From the IMG/VR virus record IMGVR_UViG_3300025858_001097: a stretch of 13,554 bases of DNA; one strand, 5' to 3'. Shown piece by piece: positions 3,051-12,247 of the stretch (position 1 is its first letter; each line of letters opens with the position of its first letter). Origin of the DNA: a virus. Its lineage: Duplodnaviria > Heunggongvirae > Uroviricota > Caudoviricetes. The notes below the pieces were generated by a model. That model was given only the letters and a program-made list of their open reading frames with translations, was not told the DNA's origin and did not search any database. Both the position numbers and the translations under genes were made by a program.

Positions 3051-3269
3051 TTATTTATAAATATATTCTATTTTTGAAATAAATATTTTTTTCCACCAAG
3101 GCAAATTATACCATTCCACAACCCTACTTTGTTGTAATATTATTCTATCTGTTATTCTATCCAGTTCGGGCCATTGGCCTCTCACGCTTTCAAGATAAGC
3201 TAATCCGTATAATGGTTCATTTTCCCAAATTTCTTCACCGTATGGATCTATTTCAGAATATTTGTTCAT
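3051..3269 (-). CDS. Hypothetical protein, 72 aa
   Basis: ATG 4 nt after the upstream TAA; N-terminal EIDPYGEEIWE and C-terminal LPWWKKIF. Confidence 0.7.
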   Translation of the reverse strand: MNKYSEIDPYGEEIWENEPLYGLAYLESVRGQWPELDRITDRIILQQSRVVEWYNLPWWKKIFISKIEYIYK

Positions 3270-3273
3270 TTTT

Positions 3274-3366
3274 TTACATTAAGAAATTATACACCACTGT
3301 TTCAACAGCAATAATAATCGCCGTAGTCATAAGAGCTGTTACTACAATAATATCCAATCTTTTCAT
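3274..3366 (-). CDS. 30-aa single-pass membrane peptide (not in ORF track)
   Basis: MKRLDIIVVTALMTTAIIIAVETVVYNFLM*; A-rich leader, first ORF after the 3445-3413 promoter, 4-nt gap to the next ORF. Confidence 0.6.
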   Translation of the reverse strand: MKRLDIIVVTALMTTAIIIAVETVVYNFLM

Positions 3367-3412
3367 TTTATATTTTTTTTTATTTGATTTTAGTTTAAAC
3401 TCTTTTGCCAAC

Positions 3413-3445
3413 TGCGAATATAAAAATAAAATTCCAAATAACAAA
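3413..3445 (-). promoter_or_regulatory. Bacteroidota-type sigma-A promoter TTTG-N19-TATATTCGCA
   Basis: TTTG at 3445-3442, 19-nt spacer, TATATTCG at 3422-3415 (one mismatch to TAnnTTTG); heads the minus-strand small-ORF run. Confidence 0.55.
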
Positions 3446-4264
3446 ATGATTACAAATAAAATTTATTATGGAGACTCAATGATATTGTCAAAAAATTTGC
3501 CAGACAATTACTTAGATTTAGTGATCACAAGTCCCCCATACTCTTCGATGAAAAGCTATGGTAAAAAAATAAATAATTTTTCTCCAAGAAACTACAACGA
3601 TTGGTTTTTGCCTCTAGCTAAAGAAATAAGTAGAAGTTTGAAACCCGCAGGGTCGTTCGTTCTAAATATAAACGATAAAGTTGTAAATGGCTTCAGGGAT
3701 TTATATGTATTCGAATTAGTCATTAGAATATGCCAGGAAACAGATCTCAGCCTATATGATAGATATATATGGCATAAAAAGAACGCTCGTCCAGGAAGTG
3801 GTGATAGACTTAATGACTGGATGGAATATATTTTTCATTTTTCCAAAACAACACAAATTAAAAATAGAGTAGATAGAGTCAGAGAGCCTTATGCTGAAAG
3901 CACTATAAAAAGATATAAATCTCCTGTTGCTTTTAATAAGAAAACTGATGATAATGGTATAACCAGCATTGGTGATAAAAAGATGGTTAAACAAAATCCA
4001 CTTGGTAAAAAACCATCTACTGTTATGAGATTTAATAATGCTGGTGTTTTAAAAGGCGGAACATCTGGAAAACATCCAGCTCCATTTCATCCAGATCTTC
4101 CAGAGTTTTTTATAAAATGGTTAACTGATGAAAATGATATAGTTCTAGATCCCTTCATGGGAAGTGGCACAACGGCAGAAGTTTGTAAGAAATTGAATCG
4201 TCAATATATTGGATTTGAATTAAATGAAAGTTATAAAGATCTTATAGAAGAAAGACTGTATTAA
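3446..4264 (+). CDS. Orphan beta-class amino-methyltransferase (N6_N4_Mtase family, probably m4C), 272 aa (start revised to ATG 3446)
   Basis: NKIYYGDS, LVITSPPY (motif IV) before VLDPFMGSGTT (motif I), HPAPF, YIGFELN; stop overlaps the convergent gene's stop in TTAA 4261-4264. Confidence 0.92.
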   Translation: MITNKIYYGDSMILSKNLPDNYLDLVITSPPYSSMKSYGKKINNFSPRNYNDWFLPLAKEISRSLKPAGSFVLNINDKVVNGFRDLYVFELVIRICQETDLSLYDRYIWHKKNARPGSGDRLNDWMEYIFHFSKTTQIKNRVDRVREPYAESTIKRYKSPVAFNKKTDDNGITSIGDKKMVKQNPLGKKPSTVMRFNNAGVLKGGTSGKHPAPFHPDLPEFFIKWLTDENDIVLDPFMGSGTTAEVCKKLNRQYIGFELNESYKDLIEERLY

Positions 4265-5925
4265 GAGTGTTTTTGAGTTCTTATAGAAGCGACAGATTGA
4301 ACATCATCGTTTTTTTCTCTTTTGATATCTTCTTCTTTTTGTTTTCTAATCCTTCTTAATTGTTTCACAGTGCGAAGTATCCACGGCGTTTCGGGATCAA
4401 CATAATTCACATCTTCTTCTATATCAGCCTCTTCCCACGCCAAATCTTTGGAAGAAGTTTCGTTTTTTTTTGAGTCACTGCTCTCAATCTGTTCTGGTTT
4501 AATTTCCTCTGTTATATTTTCTTCTATAATTGGTTCTTCTGGAGTTTCTTCAGTGTTGGGTTTCCTAATAAGAATATCTTGAATTTGTGGATCATCGACT
4601 GAAAATTCCAAATATGGAACCGCTTCAATTTCTTCATCTTTTTTGATACATATAATTTCACTTAGGTTGGCGTAATCTGGATTTAGTTCTTTTATCCCCA
4701 TTTCGTCGAATTGAATAAGAACTCTGTTTTTTTCTAAATCAGATTTTATTATTATTCCTTTACCGAAAGTATTATGATAAACTCTTAATCCTTCTATTAT
4801 GTTTGTTTTAATCAGTTCTACTTTTTCCTCTGTATAACCATCTGGACAATCTTTGAGTAAAGGTTCGTTTTTTTTTAAATCGATTTCTTCCGCTTGTTCT
4901 ATTTCTTCTTCTTGATCTTCCTCTTCTTTATATATTGGATGATATGTTGTGGTAGCCAAAAATTCTTTGACTGGCTCTTCTTTTATTGGCTCTTTAATTG
5001 ACTCTTCTTTAATTGGCTCTTTTTCTAGGACGGGCTCAATTTTTTCTATTTTATCTTCTTTTTTCTCTGTGTTTTTTTCTTTATCTTCTTTCTTTTCTTC
5101 TTCTTTCTCAAACGTAGTCAATCTATTTAAACCAATTAATAATCCTATTGATAATGGATCACAAACTAGAATGATCATCAAAGTGATCCAGTTGACAATT
5201 TTATCCATTGGAGCACCTGTTAAATCAGATATAAACTTATACGGTCCAATTTCTGTAGAAACATCGGAGTTCTTTAATTCCATTATTTTTATATCATAAT
5301 AAGCTATTGAATCATTTACAGATGATGTTTCTTTCATTTTACCTGTAATGTCTTCATTTAAAAATTTAATCTGTTCGTCTTGACTCGATATAGATGCTAA
5401 GTTTCTATCAGCAGCCGAAACTTGTCTTCTATTGTATAATGTATCCAATCTTCTTTCTTGGCCGCTTCTTAAATTTGTCAATTGTGTAATTCTATTATTA
5501 TCACTTTCTATCGCTTTATTTATTCTGTCTAATTGATCTACAAACAAAGCTTTGCGATTTTCCATAATTTTTATTTGAGAATCACGATATTCAACTTTAT
5601 TTGCGGTCTTTTGATAACTGCCCGTAAGATATCCATAAACACCTACGGATGTCAAAAACATAATAAACACTATACAAAAAGTAAAAAACCATTTAAACCA
5701 TCCTATACTTTTCCAAAATCTATATACATAAGAAACAACAACTATTTTAGCTACTTCCAAAACGCCAGCTAGTGCTGTTATTGTCCAGCCTGCAGCGTGA
5801 AAAAGACTTGATAGACCAAATATTGAATAGAAAGCTGCTATTCCTGATAGACCAAATACTACCACTGTGAGAGCTAAAACCCAAAACCAATTTTTATTTT
5901 TGAAATTATTTATATTAAAATGCAC
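4261..5925 (-). CDS. 4-TM coiled-coil membrane protein (DUF4407-like) with acidic tail and PcrA/UvrD C-terminal Tudor-like domain, 554 aa
   Basis: Three N-terminal hydrophobic helices (AAFYSIFGL, LEVAKIV, FLTSVGVYGYL), coiled coil, EIGPYKFI...ILVCDPLSIGLL fourth helix, then GLRVYHNTFGKGII...LIQFDEMGIKELNPDYANL; GTG start. Confidence 0.85.
   Translation of the reverse strand: MHFNINNFKNKNWFWVLALTVVVFGLSGIAAFYSIFGLSSLFHAAGWTITALAGVLEVAKIVVVSYVYRFWKSIGWFKWFFTFCIVFIMFLTSVGVYGYLTGSYQKTANKVEYRDSQIKIMENRKALFVDQLDRINKAIESDNNRITQLTNLRSGQERRLDTLYNRRQVSAADRNLASISSQDEQIKFLNEDITGKMKETSSVNDSIAYYDIKIMELKNSDVSTEIGPYKFISDLTGAPMDKIVNWITLMIILVCDPLSIGLLIGLNRLTTFEKEEEKKEDKEKNTEKKEDKIEKIEPVLEKEPIKEESIKEPIKEEPVKEFLATTTYHPIYKEEEDQEEEIEQAEEIDLKKNEPLLKDCPDGYTEEKVELIKTNIIEGLRVYHNTFGKGIIIKSDLEKNRVLIQFDEMGIKELNPDYANLSEIICIKKDEEIEAVPYLEFSVDDPQIQDILIRKPNTEETPEEPIIEENITEEIKPEQIESSDSKKNETSSKDLAWEEADIEEDVNYVDPETPWILRTVKQLRRIRKQKEEDIKREKNDDVQSVASIRTQKHS
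4963..5019 (-). repeat. In-frame degenerate 12-15-bp tandem repeat (EPIKE-ESIK-EPIKE-EPVKE)
   Basis: Plus-strand units ttctttgactggctc, ttcttttattggctc, tttaattgactc, ttctttaattggctc. Confidence 0.75.
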
Positions 5926-5977: not shown

Positions 5978-6002
5978 TAATTTATTGAGAATCATCACTT
6001 TC
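5978..6002. promoter_or_regulatory. Degenerate copy of the dyad TAA-N4-TTGA-N3-TCAA-N4-TTA
   Basis: TAA ttta TTGA gaa TCAt cact TTc, 12 of 14 dyad positions; overlaps the BFN stop codon. Confidence 0.3.
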
Positions 6003-6647
6003 CTTCTTTTTCTTTATAATTTCATCTCTAATTTCAGAAGCTTTTTCATATTCTTCTTCGTCGATGGCTTTCTGGAGAAGTTCGTTTAATTCCTTTAAAG
6101 TGAAACCGTGAAGTCTATCTTTATCAGCTACTACTTGTGTGCCTATTTGACCTCCCTTTTTTATATCATAATATTTTTTAACTATTTCATCTACTTTATC
6201 TAATACATTATCGTATATGTAAATTGGATAATTCATTCTAACTGATATGGCTAAAGCATCTGCTGTGCGAAGTTCTACTTTAAGTTTCTTTCCAACAAGA
6301 TGTGTGAATAATATATCGTTTTTAAAATCTGATATAAGAATCTCATTGAATTTCACATTTTTATCAGCAATAACTTTTTTTAAAACATCGTAAACTAAAG
6401 GAATTATTGGTAATACTTTTTCAACTTCAATAGCTATGGCTTGTGCTTCAAAATAATTAATTATCACAGGCACTTTCCTTTCTTTACCACCATCTTCACC
6501 CAAAATAACTATATAAAGAGTTTGATCTCCACTTTTTGTGTAGGATATACCAAGAATATCAAGCTTTATCTTTTTGTTTAGTTCGTTTTGATCTTTAATT
6601 AAAAGTTTTATTAATCTGTCTCTTATAGCCATAAGTATTTTTCTCAT
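5982..6647 (-). CDS. Bifunctional nuclease (DUF151/BFN) domain + C-terminal UvrB/UvrC (UVR) motif, 221 aa
   Basis: IKLDILGISY..S...YIVIL.E..G.ERKVPVII..FEAQAIAI, ELRTADALAISVR...PIY, and LKELNELLQKAIDEEEYEKASEIRDEI; GAGG upstream of the ATG. Confidence 0.85.
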   Translation of the reverse strand: MRKILMAIRDRLIKLLIKDQNELNKKIKLDILGISYTKSGDQTLYIVILGEDGGKERKVPVIINYFEAQAIAIEVEKVLPIIPLVYDVLKKVIADKNVKFNEILISDFKNDILFTHLVGKKLKVELRTADALAISVRMNYPIYIYDNVLDKVDEIVKKYYDIKKGGQIGTQVVADKDRLHGFTLKELNELLQKAIDEEEYEKASEIRDEIIKKKKESDDSQ

Positions 6648-6730: not shown

Positions 6731-9700
6731 ATGAAACCAATCGATATTATAACCAAGCAAATGCACACCATCAACGACGACAATCTTACTGTTTTGAGAG
6801 AAGCAAGGGATCTTTGGGGCGGAATGTTTGATTCGAAGAAGAAAGAGATTATCGCCAAAATGAAAAGTCTCGGAATTCAAGAGACTCATTTTATTGTAAA
6901 CAAGGATTATACTGTAGATACTACAAAAGATGTTATGATAATAACAAAGAAATTTGAAACTTGTCCTGTTGAGTTCAACGTGGCACATGGCAATTTTATA
7001 TGGCATTATGCCAGTCTAACAAGTATGAAGAATCTACCGAAAATAGTTAAAGGAAATTTTGTAATATCTAATAACAAAATTAAATCAATGCAAGATTCGC
7101 CAACAACAATAGTAGTAGGTCAATTCAATTGCACTGGAAACCCTTTAAAAAATTTAAAAGGAGGTCCTTTAAAAACTGGAGATTATATTGCTATGATGTG
7201 CGGATTAGAATCTTTGGAAGGATCTCCCGATGAAGTAAGTGGAAATTTCTTAGTTGGTAGTAATAATCTCACGTCACTCGAACACAGTCCAAACGTAGTT
7301 AAGGGTCTATATGATTGCAGCAACAACAAATTAAAAAGTTTGGATGGAATAACAGAAGGACTAAATAGAATAAAATCAGATGGTAATTTAGTAGATTTAA
7401 AATTAATTCCAAAATCAGAAAAGTCAGAAAAGAAAGAGGATAATCAACTCCATTTAGATTTTAATAAATGGAAAATTAAAGATAAAGTTGTTTATCATAA
7501 ACCTGGTAGTATATTTGACGAGATTAAAGGAATGATTAGAGATGTAGAAGATCCAACCGCAAAAACCCCTGAAACAAGATATCAAGTTTGGTTTAAGAAA
7601 AATGATAATCCATCGATTGAGAAAGATTTCTCAATTTTACATATAAAAGGAGAACATTTAAGAAAATGGGAAGAAGATTTTGAAATAAATGATCAAGTAA
7701 TTTATAGAAATTCTAAAAGTAAATATAATGGTTATAAAGGAGAGATAGTTACTATTGAAACTATGGGTGAAGAAAAATCTTATAAAGTTAAATTTGATTT
7801 CGAATATAATCCAGGTCTTGTAAATATTGTGAGTGATAAAAATAAAACAGCTGGAAACATAAGAGTAAAGGACATAAAAGGAGAAAATTTAGAGAAAATA
7901 AATTGGAAAGACAGCCCTTTTGCAGATATTATTGTAAGTGATGATGAAAAAATAAGAGTTGAAAAAGATCCTAAAAACAATTTTATTGTTGGTGAAAAAG
8001 CCTATTTTGCTGGAAGAACTGTTATATTGTTAAATCTAAAAACACCTTTAATATGGAATGTTGAATACGAATTTCCTTCAAAAGACGAAGATGAAATATT
8101 TGCAGTTCATTGTGATAATTTGACAAAAATTAAAAAACAAGACGAACCTGTTTGGAAAATTCTTGATCCAATTGTTTATCTTGATCCTAATGGACCTTAT
8201 GACAAATGTAAAGGTCTTATTAGTTATGTTAGTGGTAACGGTGGTGTTATAGATATTGATATATTAGATAAAAAAGGAAATCGAGTAGAATTAACAAATG
8301 TTGATCATAAAAAATTAGAAAAAGACATCACTCCTAAATCGGATAAGAAAAAGAAAAAATTTAAAGCAGGAGATAATATAATTTATTTATCGACGAGTGA
8401 AAATGATAAAAATAAAAGACTACATTTATGTAAAGGAAAAATATTTTGTTCTAATGTGGCTATTTCTCCTGATGGTAGAAAAGGAACTTATGATGTAAGA
8501 ATTATTGATAGAGATGGTAGAGAAGAAACTGTGTTTTGGGTAGGCCCCGAAAATCTTAAATCACAAGAAGATAAATTCGCTAAGGGCGATAAGATCATAT
8601 ATAATAAAAAAGATGACGAATATGACGGCAAAATAGGAACTGTCGTAGATGTAGATAAAGACAAATATATATTATCTTTAAATATAGATAAAGATCTTGT
8701 CACGATTTCAGCGGTAGATTCTGATAATTTGACTAAATATATAAAGCCATTTGAGGCTAGAGTGCATATAAACGATGAAGTAATTTATACAAGAGAAGAT
8801 AGTAAATATTTTGGATGCAACGGAATCGTTACATCATACGACGTTTCTGCTGATAAATTTTCAGTTGAAATAAAATCTAAAGACAATAGAGTTATTAAAA
8901 TTCAAACTAAAGATGAAAATCTTGAACTGATTCCTCCAAAAAAGGAATTTAAAAAGGGAGATAAAATAAGGTATATTAATAGTGAAAGCCCTCACGACGG
9001 TTTAATTGGTCAAGTGGAAGAAAAGAAAGCAAACGGTCAATATAGTATCAAATTGAAAAATTCTAGAGGTGATAAAATATATCTAACGACCAGCGCAGAT
9101 TTTCTTATTCTCCTAGAAGAATCTTCAGATGTTGAATCTGGAGAAATTAAATATGGAGATTATGTAAAATACACATTTCCAGGTAGTAAACATGACGGTA
9201 GAATAGGAATATTTCAAGGAACAAGAGAAAAAGATGGAGCGTGGATTGTTCAATTTGATGACGACATATCATATTTAAAACTTTATGTTGATCCTGGAAC
9301 TTTACATTTAACCAATGAAAGACCATCTAAAAAACCCATTGCGACTACAACACATACTCCACCGGCTACAACAACGAGAAAGAAAAAGAAAAAAGAAAAA
9401 CCAATACCAAGAAAGCCAGTTTTAGTTTATAATAGAAGAAATGTAGCCAAAAGAGCCTACAGACCTCCAACGACCGGAGCGACTGAAACAATAGAAGATC
9501 TAGAACCAATCGAATTCAGAATTGGAGACAAAATAAAAGTCACTAAAGAAGGAGAATATAAAGGACAAATAGGTGAAATAACGAGTACTTGGAAGGAGCA
9601 TGATGGAACTAAAAAATATTCCATTAGATTAAGTACGATGCCTTATTATAGATACGTCGTTGGTGGCTGTAGTGAAGATGAAATGGAGTTAGTTGATGGA

Positions 9701-10504
9701 GATGAAAATTCTAGTGAGTTAGAAGATGACGTAAAAGTTGGTGATAAAGTAATTATCAATAATTCTCAATTTGTCGTTAGTGGTTCGGAAGGAGTAATAG
9801 AAAGACTGCCTATTTCTACGGATATTCCATCGAACAGAAGATATGAAATATCTGTTAGTAATCTATCAATTTGGCTTACTAGAGATCAATTCAAAAAGAA
9901 AAAGGATGAAAAAGAAAAAATTGAATTTTCAAGAGGCGACAGTGTAAAAATTAAAAATACAGACATTAAAGGAAAAATATTAGGTAAATGGGTAGTAAAA
10001 GGAGTCACTAAATATTCCGTTAAAAAACCAAACGGATTGGTAGTATTTGGTGATAAACCAGGGCTTGTTGGAGGACTTAAAGCGGAAGAATTAGAAAAAA
10101 TTGATGATAGTGAGTTAGAAGATAAAAAAGAAAAAGAAGGTGAGTTTTTTCCAGGCGATAGAGTGAGAATAAAAGAAGATGGAAATGTTGGAACGATATT
10201 AGATAAATGGCCGTATAGTGGAAAGCTAAGATATTCTGTGAAAATGCCAGAAGGCGGACCAGTTATTTTCTCCACAAAATCAAGATCAGAATTATCACCG
10301 ACTGGTTTTTCTGCGGATGAATTAGAGAAATTACCGTACGATATAGAAGTTGGCGACATTTTCGTTAGTAAATCAAATAATAATATGAAATTACAAATTA
10401 TGGAAAAACACGACAACGATAGATATTTAGTAAAATATTTGAGTGATAATACTGAAAATGAAATAAGTGGAAGCACTATATACAAATGGTGGAGAAAAAA
10501 ATAA
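6731..10504 (+). CDS. 1257-aa modular protein: about 6 LRR-type 20-22-aa repeats + about 14 tandem SH3/KOW/Tudor-like beta-barrels
   Basis: LxSLxGxPxxVxGxFxxxxNx repeats (about 7016-7390); barrels starting F/W/I-x-x-G/N-D-x-V/I at WKIKD, FEIND, FIVGE, WKILD, FKAGD, FAKGD, VHIND, FKKGD, IKYGD, FRIGD, VKVGD, FSRGD, FFPGD, IEVGD. Confidence 0.9.
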   Translation: MKPIDIITKQMHTINDDNLTVLREARDLWGGMFDSKKKEIIAKMKSLGIQETHFIVNKDYTVDTTKDVMIITKKFETCPVEFNVAHGNFIWHYASLTSMKNLPKIVKGNFVISNNKIKSMQDSPTTIVVGQFNCTGNPLKNLKGGPLKTGDYIAMMCGLESLEGSPDEVSGNFLVGSNNLTSLEHSPNVVKGLYDCSNNKLKSLDGITEGLNRIKSDGNLVDLKLIPKSEKSEKKEDNQLHLDFNKWKIKDKVVYHKPGSIFDEIKGMIRDVEDPTAKTPETRYQVWFKKNDNPSIEKDFSILHIKGEHLRKWEEDFEINDQVIYRNSKSKYNGYKGEIVTIETMGEEKSYKVKFDFEYNPGLVNIVSDKNKTAGNIRVKDIKGENLEKINWKDSPFADIIVSDDEKIRVEKDPKNNFIVGEKAYFAGRTVILLNLKTPLIWNVEYEFPSKDEDEIFAVHCDNLTKIKKQDEPVWKILDPIVYLDPNGPYDKCKGLISYVSGNGGVIDIDILDKKGNRVELTNVDHKKLEKDITPKSDKKKKKFKAGDNIIYLSTSENDKNKRLHLCKGKIFCSNVAISPDGRKGTYDVRIIDRDGREETVFWVGPENLKSQEDKFAKGDKIIYNKKDDEYDGKIGTVVDVDKDKYILSLNIDKDLVTISAVDSDNLTKYIKPFEARVHINDEVIYTREDSKYFGCNGIVTSYDVSADKFSVEIKSKDNRVIKIQTKDENLELIPPKKEFKKGDKIRYINSESPHDGLIGQVEEKKANGQYSIKLKNSRGDKIYLTTSADFLILLEESSDVESGEIKYGDYVKYTFPGSKHDGRIGIFQGTREKDGAWIVQFDDDISYLKLYVDPGTLHLTNERPSKKPIATTTHTPPATTTRKKKKKEKPIPRKPVLVYNRRNVAKRAYRPPTTGATETIEDLEPIEFRIGDKIKVTKEGEYKGQIGEITSTWKEHDGTKKYSIRLSTMPYYRYVVGGCSEDEMELVDGDENSSELEDDVKVGDKVIINNSQFVVSGSEGVIERLPISTDIPSNRRYEISVSNLSIWLTRDQFKKKKDEKEKIEFSRGDSVKIKNTDIKGKILGKWVVKGVTKYSVKKPNGLVVFGDKPGLVGGLKAEELEKIDDSELEDKKEKEGEFFPGDRVRIKEDGNVGTILDKWPYSGKLRYSVKMPEGGPVIFSTKSRSELSPTGFSADELEKLPYDIEVGDIFVSKSNNNMKLQIMEKHDNDRYLVKYLSDNTENEISGSTIYKWWRKK

Positions 10505-11437: not shown

Positions 11438-12247
11438 ATGCCTAAAGAATTCAGAAATATTGACAAATTTTGTGAATGTTGCGGGAAACAATTAAAATTG
11501 AACAATTCTAGAGATATTCAACGAAAAAGATTTTGTAGTCGTGAATGTAACGGTTCTTCACAACTAAAAAGATTATGGAAGGATGAGAAATTTGCAACCA
11601 AAATAATATCATTATCATCTAAACCCAATCCAAGAAAAGCTAGTAAAAATTTCAAAATACCGGTTGTTAAATGTAATAATTGTGGAAAAGAAATAAGAAA
11701 AAGAATTGGTAAGAGTGGACTTGTTTATTGTAATAGAGGATGTTATGACATGTATAGAAAAAATAATATAGTTCCAAGAGAAGATAATAGGAAAAAAATG
11801 TTGCTTAAATGTGTAATATGTGATAAAGAATACGAAAAACATCCATCTACATCTAAAAACTCCAAATATTGTAGTGTTCAATGTCATAATATAGGAAATT
11901 ATTTAAATATGCCAAAAAAGGATACAAAAATTGAAAAAATAATAGATGACAATTTAAAAAAATTAAAAATTGAATATAAAAAACAAAAGCAGATATCTAA
12001 TAAAACTGTATCTGATTTCTTTATAGAACCAAACATACTAATATATGCCGATGGAGATTACTGGCATAATCTGATTAAAAACAAAGAGAAAGATATTATC
12101 ATCAACGATTATTTAAAAAATAATGGATACAAAGTTCTTAGATATACAGAGAATGATATCATCAATAATATAGAATTTGTTATGAATGATATAAAAAATA
12201 ATATTAAAATAAAATGCCAGCAGCCAGTCAGCAACAAAGAGGATTAA
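11438..12247 (+). CDS. Free-standing putative homing endonuclease: three Zn-finger modules + Vsr/DUF559-like PD-(D/E)xK nuclease, 269 aa
   Basis: CECC..FCSREC, CNNC..YCNRGC, CVIC..YCSVQC, then TKIEK..L....I.Y..Q...SDF....IYADGDYWH..KD....L...GYKVLRY.E.DI. Confidence 0.85.
   Translation: MPKEFRNIDKFCECCGKQLKLNNSRDIQRKRFCSRECNGSSQLKRLWKDEKFATKIISLSSKPNPRKASKNFKIPVVKCNNCGKEIRKRIGKSGLVYCNRGCYDMYRKNNIVPREDNRKKMLLKCVICDKEYEKHPSTSKNSKYCSVQCHNIGNYLNMPKKDTKIEKIIDDNLKKLKIEYKKQKQISNKTVSDFFIEPNILIYADGDYWHNLIKNKEKDIIINDYLKNNGYKVLRYTENDIINNIEFVMNDIKNNIKIKCQQPVSNKED

Follow-up and report, generated by a model that had tools for sequence, protein, structure and literature searches.

We asked what a Tudor domain of the PcrA/UvrD type, the handle that recruits a universal bacterial repair and anti-recombination helicase to RNA polymerase (RNAP) and UvrB, is doing on a phage membrane protein. 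The protein is encoded by an open reading frame (ORF) on the (-) strand of the viral record IMGVR_UViG_3300025858_001097 (Caudoviricetes), a stretch of 13,554 nucleotides that we call the window. A first-pass annotation, made from the letters alone, had described it as a membrane-anchored coiled-coil protein with an RNAP-binding Tudor domain, and had proposed that it tethers or sequesters host RNAP or repair partners at the membrane. We confirm the observation of an ORF with a fused Tudor, the match being well above chance. The interpretation is partly supported: the identity, the fold, the interface and a likely cytoplasmic site hold, and from these we infer that RNAP or UvrB could be bound and sequestered. 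In the reading that we favour, with a probability of about 0.5, the protein would be a membrane-anchored adaptor or decoy for proteins that display a TGE hairpin, with host RNAP or UvrB, a phage UvsX, and the product of the neighbouring BFN+UVR gene as candidate partners. The parts of the protein are as follows (TM, transmembrane segment; aa, amino acids; AF2, AlphaFold2).

4261..5925 (-): whole ORF, 554 aa, GTG start; membrane module, acidic tether, Tudor and acidic tail
5803..5889 (-): TM1, aa 13-41 (hydropathy and AF2 helix)
5719..5787 (-): TM2, aa 47-69, with a nearly invariant E57 and an invariant K60 (hydropathy, homolog alignment, AF2)
5629..5700 (-): TM3, aa 76-99, running on into the first hairpin arm (hydropathy and AF2)
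5218..5628 (-): antiparallel helical hairpin, aa 100-236, predicted periplasmic (AF2; topology from positive-inside counts)
5116..5208 (-): TM4, aa 240-270, with an invariant D256-P257 (hydropathy, homolog alignment, AF2)
4849..5115 (-): linker 1, aa 271-359, acidic, Lys/Glu/Pro-rich and disordered, with EPIKE-like repeats
4636..4848 (-): extended Tudor module, aa 360-430
4657-4791 (-): canonical PcrA/UvrD-type barrel, aa 379-423 (profiles, AF2, Foldseek)
4261..4635 (-): second acidic, Pro-rich linker and basic C-terminal segment, aa 431-554 (...PWILRTVKQLRRIRKQK...), stop codon included

Identity and fold of the Tudor domain

Metagenomic phage contigs, the largest of 711 kb, hold 112 homologs of the protein; the membrane module is common to all of them and the Tudor is present in 22. 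The longest contig with an identical protein measures 93 kb. The nearest relative is a 735-kb "uncultured phage" (LR756501/LR756503), whose ortholog is 51% identical, Tudor included. Evidence for the identity of the domain was marginal from a single sequence and strong once these homologs were brought in. The window protein alone matched Pfam PF21196 with E 0.003-0.001 and 17.8-19.1 bits, short of the 23.9 bits set as the gathering cut-off, and phmmer with the single sequence reached the UvrD C-terminal domains (CTDs) of the PDB at E ~1; the NCBIfam uvrD model matched through its last 50 positions only (E 1.7e-5). The LR756501 ortholog scored 24.2 bits with PF21196, and of 100 homolog tails scanned with Pfam, 11 match this family at E < 0.01, the best at 2.7e-6. 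A profile made from the alignment of the segment in 22 family members retrieved six PDB sequences, all of them UvrD/PcrA CTDs, in the order 7egt_B (E 1.1e-8), 7egs_B (8.7e-8), 6yi2 (1.3e-7), 4c2t, 9dqs and 5dma. The family and the helicases have in common the signature G.[RK]V.H..FG.G.I...I.F...G.K.L..[YF]A.L. In the window protein it runs from GLRVYHNTFGKGIII to GIKELNPDYANL, aa 379-421 (nt 4791-4663), which is where the first-pass annotation had placed it, and its assignment to PcrA/UvrD was borne out by the profile search (E 1e-8) as well as by the structural comparisons below.

The AF2 model of the Tudor from the 22-homolog alignment had a mean predicted local distance difference test (pLDDT) of 83.5, with a core above 90. 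It places strands at 22-25, 29-37, 42-47 and 51-55 (model numbering) and adds flanking strands, so that the barrel is bordered by extra strands on its N-terminal (aa 364-370) and C-terminal (aa 422-428) sides. Comparison with the PcrA CTD had been named as a check, and Foldseek against the PDB returned UvrD/PcrA Tudors as its top seven chains, six with a TMt of 0.75-0.93 and the nuclear magnetic resonance model 6yi2 with 0.55. The best match was 7egt_B, the Thermus thermophilus UvrD CTD bound to UvrB (TMt 0.93, root-mean-square deviation 0.8 Å over 48 columns), and 7egs_B, in which the UvrD CTD is in complex with the RNAP lobe, was also among the top matches. The segment is thus predicted to form a Tudor barrel, a five-stranded and strongly bent antiparallel fold, that superposes on the solved CTDs. 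A CarD/TRCF RID identity (PF02559) was rejected: the window protein gave no match at E up to 10, and Mfd appeared only at Foldseek rank 50. BFVD yielded no named viral structural counterpart of the Tudor, its matches being uncharacterised small barrels. Pfam and NCBIfam scans found no helicase domain in the ORF, and the Tudor does not sit at the C-terminus of an SF1 helicase; at aa 379-423 of 554 it is internal and comes after the membrane module. Taken together, the homolog profile and the predicted structure confirm the domain as a PcrA/UvrD-type Tudor.

The docking surface is retained as well. In all 22 homologs H384, F387 and K412 are unchanged, and the conservation of L414 is at least 90%. 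These four align with H681, W684, K712 and L714 of Geobacillus stearothermophilus PcrA, and K412 also with K708 of E. coli UvrD. The four PcrA residues had been chosen for mutagenesis, and K712A, L714A and UvrD K708A weaken the RNAP interaction (PMC5397179). The aromatic position is F681 in E. coli UvrD (PMC7585439) and is likewise Phe in the phage Tudor. Three of the four residues of the E. coli UvrD "aromatic cage" (PMC7585439) correspond to H384, F387 and Y419; the fourth, W709, is replaced by a conserved Glu. Two cysteines flanking the Tudor, C360 and C426 (~4646-4848), covary perfectly, both being present in 10/22 homologs and both absent from 12/22. The pair is limited to one subclade, and the strands of the AF2 model, judged by register only, do not place the two side by side; a disulfide, a metal site or phylogenetic inertia could explain the covariation.

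The membrane module and its family

The order read by the first-pass annotation (three TM, a long coiled coil, a fourth TM and an acidic linker with EPIKE repeats) was recovered by hydropathy, AF2 and repeat analysis. By hydropathy, the window protein and almost every homolog are predicted to have four TM segments. For aa 1-278, AF2 with 91 homologs gave a model (mean pLDDT 85.5) in which a continuous helix 77-165 comprises TM3 and the outgoing arm; a turn leads to the return helix 169-218, and short helices and TM4 at 240-270 follow. The N-terminal module is thus modelled as a 4-TM bundle in which two antiparallel helical arms of ~65 residues each form a hairpin between TM3 and TM4. Charged residues that are invariant or nearly so lie within the TM helices (E57 and K60 in TM2, D256-P257 in TM4); the TM2 E/K and TM4 D-P residues are conserved across the aligned metagenomic homologs, and these residues hint that the core function of the family is related to ions or a polar substrate. 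Linker 1 contains EKEPIKEESIKEPIKEEPVKE, the DNA beneath it consists of imperfect 15-27-nt repeats, and Asp and Glu make up 28% of the whole 284-aa tail. The window protein starts with GTG and the LR756501 ortholog with ATG; the two starts are consistent, because the alignment begins at query residue 11 and subject residue 10.

No structural relative of the module was found by Foldseek against the PDB at E <= 0.001. VIA-align wide matched just generic antiparallel coiled-coil hairpins, and its best Z of 13.2 is, according to the tool, at or below the level that helical models reach without relationship, so no specific fold kinship can be asserted. NCBIfam SLATT (E 0.079) and Pfam Tetraspanin (E 0.083) came up as matches at noise level, and a PDB match to CdvA (E 0.0098) was attributed to coiled-coil bias. 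PADLOC gave no match for the membrane-Tudor protein or its neighbours.

Topology was judged from Lys and Arg counts over the 112 homologs, which averaged 1.57 at the N-terminus (~5 residues), 1.87 in loop 2 and 0.66 in loop 1. Because the N-terminus and loop 2 are positive and loop 1 is not, an N-in orientation is favoured, which would put the hairpin in the periplasm, and the tail and its Tudor in the cytoplasm. The N-in, cytoplasmic-Tudor arrangement of the first-pass annotation is therefore the one that the positive-inside counts favour.

Outside the metagenomic homologs, the N-terminal module has relatives among uncharacterised proteins of T4-like and jumbo phages, namely XacN1, RsoM2USA, SCTP-2, Xoo-sp13, Pelagibacter phage Mosig, Flavobacterium phage immuto and Microcystis phage Mel-JY01. 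These are 24-32% identical over aa 16-270 but differ in that the match stops at about aa 264-272, before the Tudor. The expectation that the TM and coiled-coil part is known from large T4-like phages, and not with this domain, thus agreed with XacN1 and the six others, none of which reaches the Tudor; the survey of homologs that had been suggested for the fusion found it conserved in one megaphage subclade (22/112). In a quick maximum-likelihood tree of the module, all Tudor-bearing rows fell into one 49-row clade (SH-aLRT 100), with Tudor-less rows nested within it, and the distribution of the Tudor needs at least five changes on this provisional tree. The simplest history would provisionally be one gain and several losses, or module swapping. 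LR756501 carries one copy of the module, which rules out module paralogy there.

The Tudor-less tails are likewise acidic and disordered, and they end in clade-specific short peptides. The Pfam scan of the 100 homolog tails found no other domain, just PF21196 and low-complexity noise; the JGI name "HigA" for one homolog (P0048) was not reproduced in it. The C-terminal peptides, by clade (homologs P0021-P0113), are ...IASV.GRINVAHFVPK, ...EKKTKLFQKIWRGKKII, ...RI.FTKDRKGRLL, ...GYRRGISL and ...GEYDPELL.DAER..IE, and they look like short linear docking motifs. In two related contigs, IS605 OrfB/TnpB (Cas12f-like) genes are inserted beside the membrane-protein gene (L008:2673-3884 (-) and L021:4819-6021 (+)).

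In the study that includes LR756501, phage genomes above 634 kb belong to the Mahaphage clade and have Bacteroidetes as predicted hosts (PMC7162821). Since the closest relative, LR756501, is of this size class, the protein probably comes from a Mahaphage-clade megaphage with a Bacteroidota host. PF21196 is present in the Bacteroides thetaiotaomicron genome used as a control, so that a cognate host system plausibly exists.

Candidate partners of the Tudor

The published partner motif of this Tudor type is [VIL]-D-x-x-T-G-E-[VIL]-[VILT], a beta-hairpin tipped by TGE that occurs in RpoB SI1 and in UvrB and whose Glu contacts the key Lys of the Tudor (PMC8318588). Freed from the helicase, the PcrA CTD becomes its competitor for RNAP and increases R-loops in vivo (PMC8318588). 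For the phage protein we envisage that the C-terminal acidic tether of one subclade acquired a PcrA/UvrD-type Tudor. Because the docking surface is retained, this Tudor would most likely bind the TGE beta-hairpin of a partner protein, hold that partner at the inner membrane and at the same time compete for it with the host UvrD/PcrA helicase. Candidate partners would be host RNAP beta and UvrB, which are established for the cellular domain, and a phage UvsX-like recombinase, on account of its motif.

The last of these came from a search for the motif in phage proteins. Neither its strict nor its loosened form matched in the six frames of the window or of the LR756501 locus that holds the ortholog (L001). 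Across LR756501 the core pattern has three in-frame occurrences, and the sole strict match, VVDKKTGEITY, lies in a UvsX-like recombinase (L013:1245-2495 (-)); by our own estimate ~0.04 strict occurrences are expected by chance in the LR756501 proteome. The recombinase was identified by Pfam RecA (E 1.6e-13) and by a PDB profile search that matched phage UvsX 9gbg (E 4e-48) and T4 UvsX 3io5 (E 6e-37). Among its 120 closest UvsX homologs, 84 have the strict motif (VDKKTGEIT in megaphages), and conservation at T, G and E reaches at least 90%. T4 UvsX has a near-form, LDEETGEMI, at aa 295-303 (L017:220-1395). Co-folding of LR756501 UvsX with the Tudor gave a median score of 0.49 against 0.00 for the best of three controls, where that mark is reached by 58 of 80 solved complexes and by 2 of 110 mismatched pairs, and where scores of at most 0.60 include 7 of those 80 complexes and both passing mismatches. 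The runs agreed in at least 100% of contacts, and the partner pLDDT was at least 79. We regard this as weak support for the pairing. A search of the UvsX C-terminal fragment against the PDB was uninformative.

Several observations weigh against an adaptor or decoy. The repeated loss of the Tudor within its clade means that it is dispensable for the core role of the membrane module. Beside the key lysine stands a nearly invariant Glu (K-E-L), where PcrA/UvrD has Arg or Trp (K-R-L, K-W-L), and this Glu next to K412 may shift specificity. The positive-inside heuristic is the only basis of the predicted topology, and a C360-C426 disulfide, if formed, would point to the periplasm. The UvsX hairpin is ancestral and independent of the Tudor, with no co-evolution between them, because T4 UvsX has LDEETGEMI and T4 is not known to have a membrane-Tudor protein. 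Lastly, the co-fold pass falls in a weak band and may mirror likeness to the solved 7EGT and 7EGS.

If the adaptor or decoy is directed at the host, which we consider possible though doubtful, the Tudor would bind RNAP beta (through the SI1/lobe hairpin), UvrB, or both. These might then be removed from the nucleoid, or the recruitment of host UvrD might be blocked, so that nucleotide excision repair and the control of R-loops would be disabled; or RNAP might be brought to membrane-proximal phage DNA. No partners of this Tudor type other than RNAP beta and UvrB have been established by experiment (PMC8318588, PMC5397179, PDB 7EGS/7EGT). The phage Tudor retains the interface residues, a free CTD is dominant-negative in B. 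subtilis, and the Bacteroides control genome has PF21196. The UVR motif is the module by which UvrB and UvrC contact each other, and the gene upstream of the membrane-Tudor gene encodes one, so a UvrB-related contact module would be present in each of the two operon genes. Against a host target stand the K-E-L change, which adjoins the key lysine, the repeated loss of the Tudor in sister lineages, and a window that offers no pointer to transcription. The Bacteroidota promoter box TAnnTTTG was not enriched in the window (21 matches vs 22.6 expected), and sigma-70-like promoters and terminators there were at chance level.

It is rather unlikely that the target is instead the phage's own recombinase, bound through its VDKxTGEIT hairpin. 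The tether would then anchor recombination-dependent replication at the membrane, by analogy with phi29 p16.7, or would shield UvsX filaments from the anti-recombinase activity of host UvrD. The rarity of a strict motif by chance, its conservation in UvsX homologs and, weakly, the co-fold score speak for this target, as does, also weakly, a PHROG match to a GP16.7-like replication family (phrog_6682, E 0.0019). This match covers aa 85-166, in the TM/coiled-coil segment, and is probably compositional; the motif, being ancestral in UvsX, does not depend on the Tudor; co-fold passes in this score band are more often wrong than right; and the UvsX used was that of LR756501 and not that of the window genome. 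In its boldest form, which we hold to be quite unlikely, a Mahaphage hook would gather UvsX and the recombination-dependent replication of a > 500 kb genome at the inner membrane, outcompeting host UvrD for RNAP, UvrB and UvsX.

A tail that lies in the periplasm or is directed at the surface, serving for example superinfection exclusion or an envelope function through a barrel that binds an envelope component, has a slim chance. The covarying cysteines could form a disulfide, and the charged TM residues E57, K60 and D256 suggest an envelope- or ion-related core function. But the positive-inside counts favour N-in and C-in, a 284-aa tail that is 28% acidic and has no later TM helix is an unlikely export substrate, the known partners of this Tudor type are all cytoplasmic, and the cysteine pair occurs in one subclade only and is not adjacent in the strand register of the model.

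Neighbouring genes and related proteins

The neighbours of the membrane-Tudor gene in the window are the following.

5982..6647 (-): upstream co-oriented gene, 221 aa, BFN (DUF151) domain and UVR motif (Pfam BFN_dom E 1e-22, UVR E 3e-7)
6731-10504 (+): divergent neighbour, 1257 aa, leucine-rich-repeat (LRR)-like and small-barrel repeats (47% identical to LR756501 L001:4127-7171)
3212-4264 (+): N6/N4 DNA methyltransferase, convergent with the membrane-Tudor gene
11438-12247 (+): DUF559/homing-endonuclease-like gene (PADLOC HEase E 1e-5)

The order is shared with LR756501, where the large divergent repeat protein (47% identical) is followed by the BFN+UVR gene (75%) and then by the membrane-Tudor gene. 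A BFN+UVR gene lies directly upstream in all six Tudor-bearing orthologs examined (window, LR756501, P0018, P0020, P0012 and P0007). Among five Tudor-less loci it is found in P0034 and is missing from P0043, P0032, P0029 and P0026, which instead lie near a T4 gp13-like gene. The pairing is thus conserved and non-obligatory, and it follows locus type; a strict coupling was rejected, since P0034 has BFN+UVR without a Tudor. That the BFN+UVR protein is itself the partner, in a membrane-anchored nuclease or adaptor complex, is the least probable alternative, for although the adjacency holds in 6/6 orthologs at ~45-55% protein identity with other flanking genes differing (Tudor-less, 1/5), all window frames lack a TGE-type hairpin, P0034 keeps the gene without the Tudor, and shared ancestry can explain an adjacency that follows locus type.

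The 1257-aa neighbour begins with LRR-like repeats (GNF.I.NNK..S...SP..V.G.F.C.GN.L.NL.G), which are followed by at least seven repeats of ~60-70 aa (F..GD.[VI].Y....Y.G..G.I) resembling SH3/KOW-like small barrels. Its sole Pfam match is DUF5604 (E 0.0027), NCBIfam matches it to the RecD2 SH3 region (E 1e-4), and its barrel repeats gave no match to the Tudor profile. A methyltransferase gene convergent with the membrane-protein gene is also found in three related loci.

Among known proteins, a close comparison to the proposed membrane-anchored adaptor or decoy is the PcrA/UvrD Tudor itself (PF21196; PDB 5DMA, 6YI2, 7EGS, 7EGT, 9DQS), which has the same fold, signature and docking residues and also hangs on a long disordered linker. 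It differs in being attached to a helicase, whereas the phage copy sits on a 4-TM/hairpin module, has extra strands and carries a Glu after the key Lys. The overexpressed free PcrA CTD (Urrutia-Irazabal et al. 2021, PMC8318588) is likewise without a helicase; it is able to engage the TGE hairpin of either RNAP or UvrB and to act as a dominant negative. That CTD is a soluble laboratory construct, whereas the phage Tudor is natural, phage-encoded and membrane-anchored, and is known from sequence and models. The phi29 protein p16.7 (phrog_6682) is alike in concept, combining a phage membrane anchor and a coiled coil with a cytoplasmic domain whose binding brings a DNA transaction to the membrane, but it spans the membrane with a single TM helix and its C-terminal domain binds DNA, and the likeness is an analogy only.

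Helicase-less use of the domain is not unique to the membrane-Tudor protein. Searched against 1.84 billion representatives, the Tudor profile matched 3771 proteins at E <= 1e-3. Canonical UvrD helicases were among them, and so were helicase-less forms (P0129, P0125, P0126, P0130), including a 1396-aa FtsH-like AAA+/peptidase M41 protein with several N-terminal Tudors and proteins with 4-6 tandem Tudors. Judged by such sequence matches, the domain appears to be a portable module. LR756501 itself encodes two further proteins with related barrels. One, of 474 aa (L010:1510-2934 (-)), has an aminopeptidase-like N-terminus (HIDTAD...GADDKAG) and a C-terminal barrel that matches the Tudor profile at E 8e-12; the other, of 250 aa (L011:1387-2139 (+)), has an N-terminal barrel that matches at E 5e-8 and has CarD_TRCF_RID as its best Pfam match.

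The literature searched contained no description of a membrane-anchored phage form of the PcrA/UvrD Tudor. What is new is thus the architecture, a known Tudor on an uncharacterised phage membrane family, from which we infer the mechanism. Displayed on a membrane anchor without its helicase, the handle suggests that nature uses relocalisation or a dominant negative aimed at host transcription-repair coupling or at the recombination machinery of the phage itself, and it offers a concrete, testable function for one member of a widespread and unannotated membrane family of T4-like and jumbo phages. The hairpin of UvsX, that of T4 included, may be an unrecognised docking site for UvrD-type Tudors, and as a "helicase interaction motif" it could link host UvrD to phage recombination. 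If the Mahaphage hook were true, the DxxTGE hairpin of T4-type UvsX would be a previously unrecognised UvrD/PcrA-Tudor docking site.

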